Positions 41,448-44,470 of a stretch of DNA of 64,000 bases are shown in pieces. The stretch comes from an uncultured bacterium (GTDB taxonomy: Bacteria; Omnitrophota; Omnitrophia; Omnitrophales; Aquincolibacteriaceae), in NCBI GenBank assembly GCA_964385615.1, contig CAYLPP010000012.1:16865-80864 (forward strand), written 5' to 3'. The position numbers were made by a program, and so were the translations under genes. The notes beneath the pieces are model-generated. The model made no database searches. It was not told the DNA's origin and worked only from the letters and a program-made list of their open reading frames with translations. Every line of letters begins with the position of its first letter. Position 1 is the first letter of the stretch.

Positions 41448-41711
41448 TTAGCCAGCCAGGCGGTCAGTATGCTCAGCGATCCAAAGTTTGATCAATGAAG
41501 TGCGCGGCACTCCAATGCGATCCGCTTCCCTATCCACTTTTTTGAGAATCTCACCCGGAATATCAATATTGATTCTTTGAACCGGGTAAACAACGCGAGC
41601 CGACTTCAAATCAAGATGCTCGGTAATATCTTCCTTGCCTTCGTCGAATTTCTTGTCAAATTCCTCAGCTGAAATTTTATTTTTCTTTTTCATTTTTAAA
41701 ACTCTCCTCAA
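41448..41711 (-). CDS. brnA: BrnA antitoxin (RHH/CopG-like)
   Basis: SAEEFDKKFDEGKEDITEHLDL...VDREADRIGVPRTSLIKLWIAEH matches the BrnA pattern. It overlaps upstream brnT. Confidence 0.7.
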   Translation of the reverse strand: MRRVLKMKKKNKISAEEFDKKFDEGKEDITEHLDLKSARVVYPVQRINIDIPGEILKKVDREADRIGVPRTSLIKLWIAEHTDRLAG

Positions 41712-41958
41712 AAATTTTTATCTCTTTTTCCCAGCTTCTCCTGACAGAAATAATGCGGGCCGCCTCTTTCCGCCAGGTAAAAACGCACGAGTAATACTTC
41801 CCCTGCCAAATGCCAATAAAGAGAAATCGCTCTTCATTTTCCGATCTGGCTGAAACCATCACGCCTGGAAGCATCCACATTTCCTGCGCTTCTTCAAAAG
41901 AGATGCCATGCTTCACTTTATTTGCTTCAGACTTAGCAATATCATACTCAAATTCCAT
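41677..41958 (-). CDS. brnT: BrnT ribonuclease toxin
   Basis: MEFEYDIAKSEANKVKHGISFEEAQ ... RIISVRRSWEKE is characteristic of the BrnT family. Confidence 0.75.
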   Translation of the reverse strand: MEFEYDIAKSEANKVKHGISFEEAQEMWMLPGVMVSARSENEERFLFIGIWQGKYYSCVFTWRKEAARIISVRRSWEKEIKIFEESFKNEKEK

Positions 41959-42085
41959 ATTAATTATATACCTTTTTTATACAAAAATTGATATTTGAGG
42001 GCTAATTTGACGTAACTGCTTTTAAGGGAATATCTTAGGAGGGATTAACTAAAAGGGAACCGCCCGCAGACGGTGTTTTTGAACT

Positions 42086-42102
42086 GGTCGCAAATTGCGA
42101 CC
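42086..42102. repeat. fourth copy of the same palindrome family, 3 bp downstream of the ORF6N stop
   Basis: GGTCGCAAATTGCGACC is a perfect 17-bp palindrome with the same core as the intragenic copies. Confidence 0.7.
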
Positions 42103-42104
42103 GC

Positions 42105-42698
42105 CTAATGAAACCCGATTTTCCGGCGGGAAGGTTCTGAGGGTCTCATCAGCTGGCGAATCGCGGTGAAGATGGCTCTGATTTCTTCATCATGCCTTTC
42201 GGTCTTGCGCTCCAGCTGGTCCAGCTTGGCCGAAAGCTCTTTATGGGCTGATAAAATCTGCCTCAACTTCACAAACGCTCTCATAATCGCGACATTAACA
42301 TCAATAGCCCGGTCGCTCTTCAAAACCCCCGAGAGCATGGCAACCCCCTGCTCTGTAAAGACATAGGGTAAATACTTACTGTGCCGCCCTCTTCCTTCTC
42401 TGTCTAAGGTCACATTTTGTGACCTTAGACGTTCCATTTCAAAGGTCGCATTTTGCGACCTTAAAGAGCCCAGACTTGAGGTTGCAAATTGCAACCTCAA
42501 GTTATCCAGTTCTTCTTTGGTTAGTTGAAACATAAAATCTTCGGGGAAGCGCTTGGGGTTGCGTTTTACCTGCTGGTTTAGCTGTTTGGTGGTAACTCCA
42601 TAAAGATGCGCCAGGTCAGAATCGAGCATGACCCGGTGACCACGGATAATGAAAATGCGCCCTGCGATTTGTTCGTGAGTTAATGTTTTGGAAGCCAT
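42105..42698 (-). CDS. ORF6N (KilA-N-like) domain protein with C-terminal coiled coil, carrying an in-frame repeat insertion
   Basis: IRGHRVMLDSDLAHLYGVTTKQLNQQVKRNPKRFPEDFMFQLTKEE ... KYLPYVFTEQGVAMLSGVLKSDRAIDVNVAIMRAF is the ORF6N signature. The insertion encodes LRLQFATSSLGS-LRSQNATFEMER-LRSQNVTLDREG (3 x 12 aa). Confidence 0.8.
   Translation of the reverse strand: MASKTLTHEQIAGRIFIIRGHRVMLDSDLAHLYGVTTKQLNQQVKRNPKRFPEDFMFQLTKEELDNLRLQFATSSLGSLRSQNATFEMERLRSQNVTLDREGRGRHSKYLPYVFTEQGVAMLSGVLKSDRAIDVNVAIMRAFVKLRQILSAHKELSAKLDQLERKTERHDEEIRAIFTAIRQLMRPSEPSRRKIGFH
42404..42501. repeat. three tandem 36-bp units, each containing a 21-27 bp perfect palindrome, inside the ORF6N coding frame
   Basis: Palindromes: CTAAGGTCACA-TTT-TGTGACCTTAG (42404-42428), AAGGTCGCA-TTT-TGCGACCTT (42442-42462), CTTGAGGTTGCAA-A-TTGCAACCTCAAG (42475-42501). 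Centres are spaced exactly 36 bp apart. Confidence 0.8.
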
Positions 42699-42780
42699 GC
42701 TTCCAAAATACAGAATTTCAGGAGAGGATCAATGAAGACTTGAAGAAATTAAACAGAAAGTGCCGTTTCCGCACACTGGG

Positions 42781-43023
42781 TCACGGACCCAAATAAGTGA
42801 AGATATCTTCGTGAGTGAATTTCTTCTCAGGCGAGCAGTCATTGAGCGCCCGCAAAACCCGCAGTTGAGTGCGCGCCTTGATCCGGCGCCCTTTGCGGGC
42901 CTTTAAAACCATACGGAAAGTCAGATTATCCGTCGATTTATCCACCAAATCCGTATCAGAAAGCATCAGCGCCTTCATGACCTTGTCCAGCGGCTGAACC
43001 CCCTCATCCATTTGCGGATTCAT
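42781..43023 (-). CDS. conserved hypothetical small protein, paralog B (80 aa)
   Basis: MNPQMDEGVQPLDKVMKALMLSDTDLVDKSTDNLTFRMVLKARKGRRIKARTQLRVLRALNDC... It is about 80-85% identical in DNA to 39161-39409. Confidence 0.6.
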   Translation of the reverse strand: MNPQMDEGVQPLDKVMKALMLSDTDLVDKSTDNLTFRMVLKARKGRRIKARTQLRVLRALNDCSPEKKFTHEDIFTYLGP

Positions 43024-43074
43024 TCATTATCCCTGCAACCCGGCACCGAGAGTACCGGCACCCAATTCAATTAC

Positions 43075-43623
43075 CTAATCCTTAAACTCTTTAAAAAATT
43101 GATCTAAGTAAGTCAAGGTCTCTTTCACGCGTGCTTTATTACCTCTTTCAAATGCCTGAGGCAATGGACGCAAAATGTATCTTTCGTATTTTCCTGCCAA
43201 ACTTGGAAATATCTCTAAAATAGTCTCTTTTATTGTTAATTTTCGCTGTTTCGCATACGTCTTAATTTTATCCACATATGGCTGAGGCAAAGAAACCTGT
43301 CTTGTTTTAGGGTTTTTTAACTGCCCAGTAAAATCAGGCGATCTCTTATGCCAAATTTCAGCGTAGTCTATTTCCCTTTTATCGTAATCAATTTTCAAAT
43401 CTTTGTAATTCATTCGCCCCGTAACGACTCTATTCCGCATTGATTCAGAATGACGACGGGTAGAAAAATTTTTTTTGATAAAAAAATGAACGGTTTGTCG
43501 GCTAATTGGCTTTTTATACTTATTTTCTATCTGTTCTGCGATTTCTTTGGCAGACATTCTTTCATTTATGTACCAATTCTCAATTTCCGCTAAAGGCACA
43601 AGATTTCCTAGGATTTTTCGCAT
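43075..43623 (-). CDS. hypothetical protein with N-terminal HTH-like segment, in low-GC island
   Basis: 182 aa. MSAKEIAEQIENKYKKPISRQTVHFFIKK resembles a helix-turn-helix. Local GC is about 36% against about 51% for the flanks. Confidence 0.5.
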   Translation of the reverse strand: MRKILGNLVPLAEIENWYINERMSAKEIAEQIENKYKKPISRQTVHFFIKKNFSTRRHSESMRNRVVTGRMNYKDLKIDYDKREIDYAEIWHKRSPDFTGQLKNPKTRQVSLPQPYVDKIKTYAKQRKLTIKETILEIFPSLAGKYERYILRPLPQAFERGNKARVKETLTYLDQFFKEFKD

Positions 43624-43675
43624 AGACTTCCCGATTTGAACGCAACGCTGAATGTGTTATGGCCAGTCTTAGAAT

Positions 43676-44470
43676 TCATTTTTTCTGACTCACAAACTCC
43701 CAGATATTAAAGCCTTCCCTACTTAAACCTGTTGGTTTTGACAGATCTTTTTTACTCAACCTTTGAATAAATTCGATCATTTCGCTTTTCGATTCACCCC
43801 TCTTAGATTTGCTGGTGCCCTTTTTATTCCAAACAAATGAGATTGCACCAACCAACAAATCTACCAACTGCAGGAGGTTATGGTCTTTAGCTTTCCCTTC
43901 GGAGATAGAACAATGTTCTAAATAACTTTCAACTCCATTCGTTTTTCTCATAAAGCGCCAGTTTGTGGTTTGCTCTAAAATCTCAACACCTCGATTGAAG
44001 TCAGAGGAGTACCTATCAATTATTATTTCAAAAAAATGATCCCCCTTATTTTTCATCAATCCATCACATAAGAAAGTACAATAAAATTTAACATACCCAG
44101 TCAAAGCATCGCCCCCCATGTAAACCTTGTGATTTAAAGGGTACTTAACCGTATCGACAACTAAACAACGAAAACGAATTCGACCGATATTTTCCAAAAA
44201 AAGCCGAAGGAATTCTTTATAACCTTCTCGATACCGTCCTTCCGTAGGAATTTTCTCCCACTTCAGCTCGTGCATTAAGCGGTATTTGGTTTTGATATCT
44301 GCTAGTTTTTTTTCGATCTTCTGGATTATTAAATCTGATTCATCAGGTTTTGTTGGGATGAAATATACAGCCCCCAGCACAAAGTATCTATGCCCTGATT
44401 GAGATGATTCATCGCAAAAGGCGATGATTTTCTTATCAGCGTGAATTTTGTCAGGTAAATTCAGATTCAT
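43676..44470 (-). CDS. DUF3800 family protein
   Basis: 264 aa. The two diagnostic DUF3800 motifs are present: N-terminal D-E-S (IIAFCDESSQSG) and C-terminal Q-x-x-D (NLLQLVDLLVGAI). Low GC. Confidence 0.65.
   Translation of the reverse strand: MNLNLPDKIHADKKIIAFCDESSQSGHRYFVLGAVYFIPTKPDESDLIIQKIEKKLADIKTKYRLMHELKWEKIPTEGRYREGYKEFLRLFLENIGRIRFRCLVVDTVKYPLNHKVYMGGDALTGYVKFYCTFLCDGLMKNKGDHFFEIIIDRYSSDFNRGVEILEQTTNWRFMRKTNGVESYLEHCSISEGKAKDHNLLQLVDLLVGAISFVWNKKGTSKSKRGESKSEMIEFIQRLSKKDLSKPTGLSREGFNIWEFVSQKK

Follow-up and report, generated by a model that had tools for sequence, protein, structure and literature searches.

The signature peptide motif of ORF6N genes is encoded by a hairpin-forming palindrome conserved as nucleic acid

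ORF6N is a DNA-binding protein family widespread in bacteria and phages, and its genes (ORF6N / PDC-S05) abound in defense islands, prophages, and small plasmids, where they stand alone. The peptide motif by which the family is best known comes from a DNA palindrome able to form a hairpin and conserved at the nucleic acid level. Starting from one such gene, located in a 64-kb stretch of DNA from an uncultured Omnitrophales bacterium (the window, taken at its full length), and from its homologs, our study shows that genes of the ORF6N / PDC-S05 type carry this palindrome within their coding sequence as an ancient cis-element of the family. We found no description of this palindrome or of its core in the searchable literature on ORF6N, PDC-S05, and KilA-N.

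Results

The ORF6N-domain gene of the window (42105..42698, minus strand) encodes a protein of 197 aa that matches both the Pfam profile PF10543 and the PADLOC PDC-S05 profile. The Pfam match (E = 2.2e-37; 127.7 bits for a cut-off of 27.8) spans profile positions 2-86 of 86 and aligns 112 residues with 85 profile positions, pointing to an insertion of some 24-27 aa, and the PADLOC match (PDLC04856; E = 1.9e-62) falls into two stretches with the insertion between them. Apart from ORF6N, the Pfam scan of the protein found no domain, and neither Pfam nor PDB searches linked it to replication initiators, recombinases, or HUH enzymes. The AlphaFold2 model (mean pLDDT of 72) predicts a helix-turn-helix formed by helices 26-33 and 37-46 and, toward the C terminus, a long helix (residues 129-165), with a pLDDT below 50 for residues 76-105, so that the second and third of the repeat units described below are modeled as a disordered loop. 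PDC-S05 is a candidate single-gene anti-phage system in PADLOC. According to a preprint, one PDC-S05 representative cut the EOP of T7 and T5 about 1000-fold; this tested member had a Virulence_RhuM domain, and the transfer of its phage resistance to the ORF6N subfamily is therefore uncertain.

The pattern GGTYRCAWWWTGYRACC has four matches in the 64 kb, at 42086, 42408, 42444, and 42480, for 0.03 predicted by shuffles, and all four sit at the ORF6N gene. Three in-frame 36-bp (12-codon) units (42393..42500, minus strand, codons 67-102) encode LRLQFATSSLGS / LRSQNATFEMER / LRSQNVTLDREG, the peptides already given in the initial annotation, and the corresponding palindromes, centered on 42488, 42452, and 42416, follow each other at intervals of exactly 36 bp, with each center at the first base of a codon (71, 83, and 95, respectively). 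Palindrome 1, ACTTGAGGTTGCAA-A-TTGCAACCTCAAGT (42474..42502), has 14-nt arms, a 1-nt center, and the inner core TTGCAA, and codes for (N)LRLQFATS(S); its DNA hairpin folds at -13.8 kcal/mol (z = -7.4). Palindrome 2, AAGGTCGCA-TTT-TGCGACCTT (42442..42462), codes for LRSQNAT with 9-nt arms, a 3-nt loop, and the inner core TCGCA (-9.6 kcal/mol, z = -6.2), and palindrome 3, GTCTAAGGTCACA-TTT-TGTGACCTTAGAC (42402..42430), codes for (R)LRSQNVTLD with 13-nt arms, a 3-nt loop, and the inner core TCACA (-12.4 kcal/mol, z = -8.4). The noncoding palindrome 4, GGTCGCAA-A-TTGCGACC (42086..42102), with 8-nt arms and a 1-nt center, is the family's minimal 17-bp core and follows the TAG stop codon (42105-42107). 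Folding z scores of single DNA hairpins in the window range from -4 to -8.4. Counted with arms of at least 8 nt and a loop of at most 3 nt, the whole window holds 10 perfect palindromes, five of them in the ORF6N gene, for a shuffle mean of 3.3. Coordinates and profile match thus confirm the three consecutive in-frame perfect palindromes at 36-bp spacing and the fourth at the stop that had been annotated initially, apart from two details: the length reaches 29 bp in two palindromes, beyond the range of 21-27 bp first given, and the fourth lies 2 nt, not 3, past the TAG. Read on the sequence, an inversion between palindromes 3 and 4 would place a stop directly after the palindrome.

Downstream of palindrome 4, a consensus scan alone points to a terminator-like hairpin with a T-rich tail (42059..42074, minus strand); if used, it would place palindrome 4 inside the transcript. 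The sense strand has no U-tract after the internal hairpins, and the terminator scan gave a single weak match there, on the opposite strand (42401-42431). As RNA, the triplicated block folds at -62 kcal/mol (z = -8.1), and the Rfam 15 covariance-model scan of the region found no family (best scores of 16-20 bits, for gathering scores of 100-200). A further hairpin, UUUUGGAAGC-AUG-GCUUCCAAAA (42686..42708, minus strand), does not belong to the palindrome family: its perfect 10-nt arms hold the ATG in the loop and a Shine-Dalgarno-like GGAAG in the 5' arm, and two related genes, L268 and L269, keep it, differing by a single compensatory change (G:C to A:T) and a single G.T wobble.

A near-perfect palindrome is present at the same place in 186/186 distinct homologous genes, collected from 240 loci in many phyla, phage contigs, and plasmids, with a site defined by at least 9/12 Watson-Crick pairs between the FMFQ and FTEQG anchors. 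Arms are perfect over 10-16 nt in 105 of them (56%), and an unbiased anchor test gave 77-93% pairing at k = 2-13. In 142 genes, the palindrome occupies the identical codon position, 36 nt after the FMFQ codons, and the codons of L-R-S-Q-I-A-T-S/L-K spell YTTRARRT-NN-CAA-W-TTG-NN-AYYTYAAR. Synonymous codons are fixed accordingly: at the palindrome, Gln is CAA in 68/68 cases (background of 48%), Arg is AGG/AGA in 54/54 (32%), and Ser is TCG/TCA in 54/54 (28%). Amino acid pairs in turn obey base pairing (S-A 47, S-V 32, F-G 17, Y-G 5, L-A 4, and also C-G), Ser-Ala being written TCG/GCG in 23/24 cases and Ser-Val TCA/GTG in 27/29. Compensatory changes occur at 10/13 pairs; cells changed on both sides number 232, for 66 in shuffles (0/500), and controls with partners slid by 1-3 columns were only 25-43% paired. 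Among the few pairs of very similar genes, single and double changes number 4 and 4. Mismatches show no excess of G.T (43, versus 74 A.C), and G.U makes up about 2% of cells, a test that weighs weakly against RNA since coding constraints confound the mismatch spectrum.

Moreover, the element survives a change of frame. Six genes carry it in a second reading frame, as core variants TCGCAA/TCACAA/TGCCAA, with the position shifted by only 2 nt and homologous flanks, and the GGT, CA/TG, and T/A identities are kept in these frame-shifted copies as well as in noncoding ones. Copies within one locus differ at the NN positions (TTG, TCG, and TCA in the window; further cases in L001, L013, L018, L036, and L141) and in the outer arms, yet each is perfectly self-complementary. 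The copy number per gene ranges from 1 to 3, with a single copy in 154/186 and three in the window and L268, and it differs even among close relatives; unit spacing also varies among homologs. With one exception among the cases listed, the palindrome center lies 22-24 codons past the recognition helix, and only two Segatella genes, both related plasmid genes, have a deviating core, along with a deviating helix (ALKNN). Altogether, codon fixation, covariation, the second frame, and the copy number data establish that the nucleotide palindrome is the conserved object and that the peptide follows it.

The triplication in the window is one version, with three tandem copies and one post-stop copy, of this family-wide palindrome. 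The initial annotation had proposed that this DNA is under two constraints at once, which codon fixation, compensatory covariation, and conservation in two reading frames bear out across the family, and that the three units amplify a single LRSQ..T segment, in agreement with the copy number of homologs and with the three units of the closest relative with DNA. Palindromic symmetry in other ORF6N genes, a test set beforehand, was indeed found in the homologs. That the palindrome is a property of the whole ORF6N gene family was absent from that annotation.

Noncoding copies also accompany the gene. About 24 upstream copies were found in at least 19 loci within 150 nt before the start codon, several ending 11-17 nt ahead of the ATG, and about 90% of genes have none. 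Post-stop copies occur in at least 8 loci, about 5 of them starting 1-6 nt past the stop (e.g., 5 nt after it on a Legionella plasmid, L267, and at +6 in L270; others are in L141, with three copies, L144, and L182), and some loci carry copies at both gene borders. Copies farther from the ORF6N gene are rare: over about 1.07 Mb of homologous loci, family-like palindromes lie nearly all in or adjoining ORF6N genes, with an estimated enrichment of extra copies of about 40-fold beside start and stop codons. Among viral contigs with the exact 19-mer, about 20/24 loci have it outside an ORF6N-like ORF; some are terminator stems, and some stand-alone copies in phage contigs have T-runs. A Pfam scan of the flanks at 80 genome loci (116 proteins) revealed no recurrent partner gene. 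The ORF6N module stands alone in contexts and phyla that are unrelated to one another, and on Segatella copri plasmids of 2.9 kb and 4.1 kb, ORF6N and Rep are the only two genes. Homology between related modules stops in a neighboring gene and at a terminator, and in the Bacteroidales phage set, module borders did not coincide with palindromes.

Discussion

We propose, tentatively and at somewhat less than an even chance, that the palindrome is a DNA site of the gene's own helix-turn-helix product, the symmetry of which is kept by hairpin-templated correction. The 17-bp inner core, GGT-NN-CAA-W-TTG-NN-ACC, would be the recognition site, and the candidate binder would be this predicted helix-turn-helix protein, in which the recognition helix (TKxLNxxVKRN) is nearly invariant and the long helix at the C terminus is predicted to make dimers. 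With no conserved neighbor around the gene, nothing but its own protein accompanies the site from locus to locus. By binding within the gene, this protein would feed back on expression, and the copies near the start or stop codon, where present, could add to this feedback by roadblock or looping. Perfect symmetry reaches past any likely protein footprint and holds where copies differ; it would be kept either as a hairpin/cruciform or through hairpin-templated (template-switch) correction during replication. In both cases the arms would pair with each other, which would preserve the symmetry and leave almost no G.T pairs. The triplication in the window would have arisen when slippage, or unequal exchange between copies, expanded the unit in frame. 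It would raise the number of sites from one to three and was probably tolerated since what the additional units encode is predicted to be a disordered loop.

The conserved GGT, CA/TG, and T/A identities fit a sequence-specific reading of B-form DNA better than the reading of an RNA stem, and the clustering of noncoding copies shortly before the start codon, in at least 19 loci, makes an autoregulatory operator plausible. Against this, the absence of an upstream copy in about 90% of genes counts, as does the fact that post-stop copies are not in a classical operator position. Moreover, perfect pairing in the outer arms and at NN is not what a plain dimer operator would lead one to expect, so that an auxiliary mechanism (cruciform or template switching) must be added. 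Intragenic operators and roadblocks such as lacO2 in lacZ, galOI in galE, and the PurR site in purB are likewise palindromic sites in a coding region, sometimes with a promoter-proximal copy. Unlike the ORF6N palindrome, the symmetry of which extends to 27-33 bp and co-varies, they are imperfect and 16-20 bp long, and they are not known to be conserved across a protein family or to dictate amino acids.

Every copy lies inside the probable transcript (5' leader, coding sequence, and stop-to-terminator stretch), which fits an RNA element equally well. A stem-loop brake or sensor in the mRNA, gating the translation or decay of a potentially toxic defense protein, is accordingly conceivable but rather unlikely. 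The stem-loops in the 5' leader near the Shine-Dalgarno sequence, in the coding region, and directly past the stop would act by slowing ribosomes or stalling them at termination, by RNase III processing, or as binding sites of the protein itself. The placement of the upstream and post-stop copies is in line with this, as are the pairing kept despite sequence variation at 10/13 positions, typical of a structural element, the strong RNA fold of the triplicated block, and the mostly sense-like asymmetric loops of noncoding copies (about 7 versus 2 in a manual count). Translational control is plausible given that the same gene clade has a hairpin sequestering the Shine-Dalgarno sequence and start codon, and Liang and Deutscher reportedly observed ribosome stalling, and with it lowered expression, where a REP hairpin lies no more than about 15 nt from a stop codon. 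However, the palindromes show no tolerance of G.U, whereas the start-codon hairpin of the same genes does show wobble and mismatch. Symmetry up to the central base leaves a 1-nt center that is unusable for a hairpin, and the identity of stem bases (GGT...ACC) in noncoding and frame-shifted copies would be hard to read in an A-form helix. The missing U-tract and the lack of an Rfam match also speak against an mRNA element.

It is improbable, in our view, that the palindrome has no dedicated function and is a self-maintaining recombination hotspot in a tolerant inter-domain segment. Hairpin-templated correction would then keep the arms identical and extend them, and hairpin-induced breaks together with slippage would produce gene conversion, unit duplication, and local copying nearby. 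Several observations suggest such activity: (i) perfect Watson-Crick arms without wobble or strand asymmetry, (ii) variable copy number, (iii) half-converted intermediates, e.g., a C:A mismatch in unit 1 of L269, (iv) a central cassette swapped between otherwise 90-96% identical genes (L016/L148 and L061/L167), (v) mosaic N-terminal and C-terminal parts in some gene pairs, and (vi) a post-stop copy in L270 that looks chimeric, with the flanks of units 1 and 2. Quasi-palindrome template-switch mutagenesis, reportedly an established process from the work of Ripley and of Lovett, perfects imperfect palindromes and could yield both the paired changes and the lack of wobble; as a mutational process, it leaves the family-wide retention and the placement of extra copies unexplained. 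Retention in 186/186 genes from different phyla, the proteins of which are about 50% identical and the silent sites saturated, persistence in a second reading frame, core identity in noncoding copies, and extra copies enriched beside start and stop codons rather than scattered argue instead for purifying selection on the element, all the more since selection usually acts against long palindromes.

We give a similarly small probability to an anti-phage system of one gene in which the hairpin/cruciform form does the work itself, as a structured DNA/RNA switch inside the ORF6N gene. Located at the junction of the DNA-binding and effector halves, this switch would control or trigger the defense protein upon sensing an infection-linked change, such as supercoiling, lost translation coupling, or phage junction-resolving/hairpin nucleases. 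If true, the LRSQIATS signature peptide would be largely a by-product of a nucleic acid element.

Iteron-like or recombination sites for the replication or mobility of the gene are very unlikely. The closest parallel is the lambda origin, where four ~19-bp dyad-symmetric O-binding repeats lie within the inter-domain linker region of gene O: there as in the window, tandem dyad-symmetric in-frame sites occupy a tolerant inter-domain segment of a DNA-binding protein gene, and one stretch of DNA carries both a protein code and a protein-binding code. The solo module in unrelated contexts and phyla, its pairing with Rep alone on the two small Segatella copri plasmids, and the copies at both gene borders of some loci point the same way. 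Unlike O, however, the ORF6N product has no similarity to replication initiators (nor to recombinases or HUH enzymes) and ORF6N as its sole domain, stands solo in chromosomes, and on small plasmids coexists with a separate Rep gene; its binding at the palindrome is only putative. Most ORF6N genes have just one copy, an internal one, and none at their borders. Their arms, which reach 16 nt, are much longer than those of the lambda repeats and perfect, and they vary in a compensatory way. No AT-rich unwinding region was noted at ORF6N, and module homology does not end at palindromes. Invertase crossover sites within tail-fiber genes and the hairpin ends of HUH elements would be comparable cases; invertible-segment switching was rejected here, as most homologs have no second site. 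Also rejected were a CRISPR-like array, given the absence of spacers and the units being in frame, and ToxI-like 36-nt antitoxin repeats, given the variable unit spacing among homologs and the absence of a ToxN-like gene.

Invasion of the gene by a dispersed REP-, MITE-, or RPE-like hairpin element, raised in the initial annotation and suggested by perfect palindromes in and beside a gene and by the viral-contig 19-mers outside ORF6N-like ORFs, is extremely improbable and was rejected, since the palindrome holds a fixed codon position in 142 homologs and its copies sit at ORF6N genes, all of them in the window (4/4, in contrast to the dispersal that this annotation had named as a refutation) and nearly all over the 1.07 Mb of homologous loci. 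REPs, which occur as hundreds of dispersed intergenic copies tied to RAYT transposases, similarly form stable hairpins just past stop codons, sometimes in tandem (REP/BIME), whereas the ORF6N palindrome is private to its loci and has its main copy in the coding sequence. Rickettsia palindromic elements (RPEs) are also palindromic DNA translated as part of a protein, but they are mobile in-frame insertions scattered among unrelated genes, while the ORF6N element sits at one homologous position in one family and appears ancestral.

The signature motif of a Pfam family would thus be dictated by a nucleic acid palindrome rather than by protein function, which changes how conservation and covariation are to be read in the ORF6N family, and perhaps elsewhere. 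Annotators who meet variants in repeat number, or what look like low-complexity insertions, in these proteins would be seeing the expansion of a DNA element and not new protein function. The palindrome represents an unusually clean natural case of overlapping codes, in which amino acid pairs co-vary through the pairing of their codons and the element survives a change of frame, and it offers a concrete, mutable handle on the ORF6N / PDC-S05 genes.

The palindromes of the window ORF6N gene

The 197-aa product of the minus-strand ORF at 42105-42698 matches Pfam ORF6N (E = 2.2e-37), with 112 residues set against 85 profile positions, indicating an insertion of about 24 to 27 aa in the window protein. 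Three perfect palindromes lie in frame within the gene, at 42474-42502 (palindrome 1, 14-nt arms), 42442-42462 (palindrome 2, 9-nt arms), and 42402-42430 (palindrome 3, 13-nt arms), and their centers are spaced by exactly 36 bp, each on the first base of a codon. These arms and spacing, together with four matches to the core GGTYRCAWWWTGYRACC within the 64-kb window versus 0.03 expected, bear out the initial annotation, which had described in-frame 36-bp palindromes and a fourth copy at the stop codon. The fourth palindrome (42086-42102, perfect 8-nt arms) is indeed located there, starting 2 nt past the TAG stop and not 3 bp after it as first given. Perfect palindromes with arms of at least 8 nt number only 10 in the whole window, 5 of them in the ORF6N gene, for a shuffle mean of 3.3. 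The block also folds far more stably than shuffled sequence, both as RNA (z = -8) and as DNA hairpins (z = -4 to -8). On the plus strand, a 66-aa ORF (42166-42366) runs antisense to the gene's C-terminal coiled-coil region, probably as a side effect of codon composition.

A property of the ORF6N family

Homologues of about 170 to 190 aa, with one, two, or three LRSQ..T units, numbered in the thousands in a protein search. Homologue DNA comprised 240 loci (80 from genomes of many phyla, 80 from metagenome contigs, and 80 from viral contigs) picked via conserved peptides outside the motif itself; related sequences in this set are not independent, and the viral part is rich in near-duplicates, only identical ones having been removed. 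Between the conserved FMFQ and FTEQG peptides that flank the motif, every one of the 186 distinct genes contained at least one site with at least 9 of 12 Watson-Crick pairs (chance expectation of ~0.04 per gene by our own calculation), and 105 had perfect arms of 10 to 16 nt. Picking near-palindromic sites inflates pairing percentages in such counts, an effect that leaves untouched the 77 to 93% pairing obtained at every position from 2 to 13 when the center was set by the protein alignment alone. Single-copy genes numbered 154, two-copy genes 27, and three-copy genes 5, and long arms were essentially absent from other parts of the same genes. Even in Segatella plasmid homologues of ~33% identity, the palindrome is kept at the homologous place with a different core; the cores in the two Segatella copri plasmids L265 and L266 are GTGGTCGAAATTTTCGACCAC and GAGGTTATCAAAAAATTTGATAACCTC. 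The family consensus reads YTTRARRT-NN-CAA-W-TTG-NN-AYYTYAAR. The palindromic symmetry is thus a property of the ORF6N family and not a local oddity.

Selection acts on nucleotides

Codon choice in the motif is nearly fixed: CAA is used for all 68 Gln (background, 48%), AGG/AGA for all 54 Arg (32%), TCG/TCA for all 54 Ser (28%), GCG for 24 of 25 Ala, and GTG for 28 of 30 Val. Moreover, codons are matched across the center, Ser-Ala pairs being TCG/GCG in 23/24 cases and Ser-Val pairs TCA/GTG in 27/29. Amino acids covary as base pairing dictates, both for inner pairs [S(TCG)-A(GCG), S(TCA)-V(GTG), C(TGC)-G(GGC), F(TTC)-G(GGA), Y(TAC)-G(GGT), and L(TTG)-A(GCA)] and for outer pairs [R(AGG)-T(ACC), R(AGA)-I(ATC), K(AAG)-T(ACT), and K(AAA)-I(ATT)]. 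Among 80 distinct sites, compensatory changes were found at 10 of 13 pairs, with 232 doubly changed cells versus 66 in shuffles (0/500 shuffles reached 232). Paired cells amounted to 92% in these sites, compared with only 25 to 43% in controls with the partner slid by 1 to 3 columns; as the sites were preselected for pairing, which inflates this percentage, only the covariation is unbiased. Finally, the cores (GGTCGCAAWTTGCGACC, GGTCACAA..., and GGTGCCAA...) have moved by 2 nt in six genes whose flanks are homologous on either side; there, a different frame is translated, giving V-A-N/I-C-D, V-T-I-C-D, or V-P-I-W-H, and the outer arms differ in sequence but retain pairing. Codon choice, base-pair-driven amino acid covariation, and this second reading frame confirm the double constraint on the DNA that had been suspected. 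Altogether, they show that a hairpin-capable palindrome is under selection at the nucleotide level, and the conserved object is the nucleotide palindrome.

Unit number and recombination

The closest relative with available DNA (L268, 75% identity) also carries three tandem palindromes, the distances between centers being 30 and 36 bp. Its cores are TTGCAA, TCGCAA, and TTGCAA, and its differences from the window in unit 3 are paired changes. With two units in L269 and L270 and one in the protein-search homologue P0003, unit number is dynamic among close relatives. A single C:A mismatch in unit 1 of L269 looks like a half-converted state. In the AlphaFold2 model, unit 1 lies in a helix (residues 61 to 74) and units 2 and 3 lie in residues 76 to 105 (pLDDT < 50), which separate the helix-turn-helix part from the remaining protein, so that the extra units look tolerated rather than needed.

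Two pairs of loci (L016 versus L148 and L061 versus L167) are 90 to 96% identical on both sides of central cassettes that differ (LRSQIVTLKKRRGQHSKY versus LRSQIVTSSDWGGRRY type), with breakpoints at the FMFQL and FTEQG codons, which are conserved. The central segment is a recombination patch, with patch gene conversion around the palindrome. Likewise, N-terminal parts share 91% nucleotide identity between L191 to L193 plus L207 and L211 plus L213, whereas C-terminal parts share only 59 to 68%; the two halves of the gene were exchanged as modules.

Copies outside the coding sequence

Family-type palindromes, one or two per locus, lie within about 150 nt before the start codon in at least 19 loci, several ending 11 to 17 nt before an ATG and adjoining the Shine-Dalgarno sequence, the start codons of fetched loci being guessed. 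At least eight loci besides the window have copies just past the stop codon, e.g., at +5 nt in L267 (a Legionella plasmid), at +6 in L270, three in tandem in L141, and also in L144 and L182. Such copies are rare farther off, with an estimated ~40-fold enrichment near gene ends, and their placement is not random. Copies within one locus differ at the inner dinucleotides and outer arms, each still being self-complementary. The post-stop palindrome of L270 (820-838) is chimera-like, sharing its left flank, AGGCTCTAAGGTC, with internal unit 2 and its right flank, GTGACCTCAAAA, with internal unit 1, and appears copied from an internal unit. In L130, an unrelated perfect palindrome (GTTGATGTTCC-ATTCC-GGAACATCAAC, about 842-868) lies between two upstream family palindromes.

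The exact 19-mer was found at 24 loci in viral contigs, several with extended arms of ORF6N style, and the match fell within an ORF6N-like ORF in about 4. Six related phage contigs (L086, L095, L098, L099, L102, and L103) carry a lone 27- to 29-bp ORF6N-type palindrome, GTTTAAGGTCGCAATTTGCGACCTTAAAC, with no ORF6N gene found within the fetched stretches. In the two loci with ORFs listed, it is intergenic and right after a stop codon (L086, 3112-3140; L095, 2264-2290); in these two and in several others of the 24 loci, a T-run follows the palindrome, as in intrinsic terminators. Hence, ORF6N genes are not the sole carriers of the palindrome, yet it is no dispersed repeat.

Genomic context

No conserved neighbor was found among the genes flanking homologous loci, and the ORF6N gene is a solo module in unrelated contexts. 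The two small S. copri plasmids (L265, NZ_CP152354.1, 2955 bp; L266, NZ_CP152486.1, 4140 bp) have two annotated genes only, a replication initiator and the ORF6N gene. Two or three ORF6N paralogues are often found in tandem (L057, L073, L007, L055, and L040); in L007, the two paralogues, although of different subfamilies, have a rare CAT-T-TTG center in common, a hint that palindromes of one genome may exchange sequence.

The window gene lies within a low-GC stretch (41448-44470; GC of 0.37 to 0.45 versus about 0.50 to 0.53 in the flanks) with, all on the minus strand, a BrnA-like gene (41448-41711), a BrnT gene overlapping it by 35 nt (41677-41958), two small ORFs matching no Pfam family (42781-43023 and 43075-43623), and a DUF3800 gene (43676-44470). 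The DUF3800 gene matches PADLOC PDC-M04A and the ORF6N gene PADLOC PDC-S05, a candidate anti-phage family, and the setting looks like a defense island. According to a preprint, one PDC-S05 representative has strong anti-phage activity, but it was a member of the RhuM type, which makes transfer to the present subfamily uncertain.

What the palindrome may do

Our preferred, though tentative, reading is that the palindrome is recognized at the DNA level. Such recognition would fit (i) the GGT, CA/TG, and T/A identities kept in noncoding and frame-shifted copies, (ii) a minimal unit, the 17-bp core, as long as helix-turn-helix dimer sites typically are, (iii) a nearly invariant predicted recognition helix, (iv) the promoter-proximal position of some copies, (v) the near absence of wobble pairs, and (vi) the gene's own protein, the only factor that travels with the site. 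Against a plain operator, positions varying between copies of one locus are still perfectly symmetric and symmetry reaches 27 to 33 bp. Both features call for intramolecular pairing, whether in a hairpin or cruciform with a function of its own or in correction templated by a hairpin.

An mRNA stem-loop is the leading alternative, given that all copies lie inside the probable transcript and adjoin ribosome landmarks; the lack of G.U pairs and a symmetry that runs through the center speak against it. A separate element gives a useful contrast: a perfect hairpin with 10-nt arms (42686-42708, minus strand; UUUUGGAAGC-AUG-GCUUCCAAAA) encloses the start codon of the ORF6N gene in its loop, with a Shine-Dalgarno-like GGAAG in the 5' arm, and seems to block translation initiation at the RNA level. 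Kept in L268 (304-324) and L269 (about 835-860), it shows one compensatory G:C-to-A:T change, one G.T wobble, and a mismatch, the wobble and mismatch being the behavior expected of an RNA structure. A nonadaptive, self-maintaining palindrome would account for arm perfection and recombination but leaves unexplained its retention in 186/186 genes, its survival in a second frame, and the placement of extra copies. An origin-like or mobility role finds little support. The miniature hairpin element invading the gene, also envisaged initially, is contradicted by a palindrome that is no dispersed repeat, all four core matches in the window being at this gene and the position being homologous across the family.

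The nearest precedents are the iterons of the lambda origin, which lie within gene O, and intragenic operators such as lacO2 and galOI, along with REP hairpins after stop codons, Rickettsia palindromic elements, and quasi-palindrome template switching. None of these joins family-wide conservation at a single codon position, base-pair-dictated amino acid covariation, and cross-frame survival, and no description of the palindrome in ORF6N, PDC-S05, or KilA-N genes was found in the searchable literature, exact cores included. The finding belongs to a known class, that of cis-elements overlapping coding sequence, and there is a real chance that its mechanism is new.
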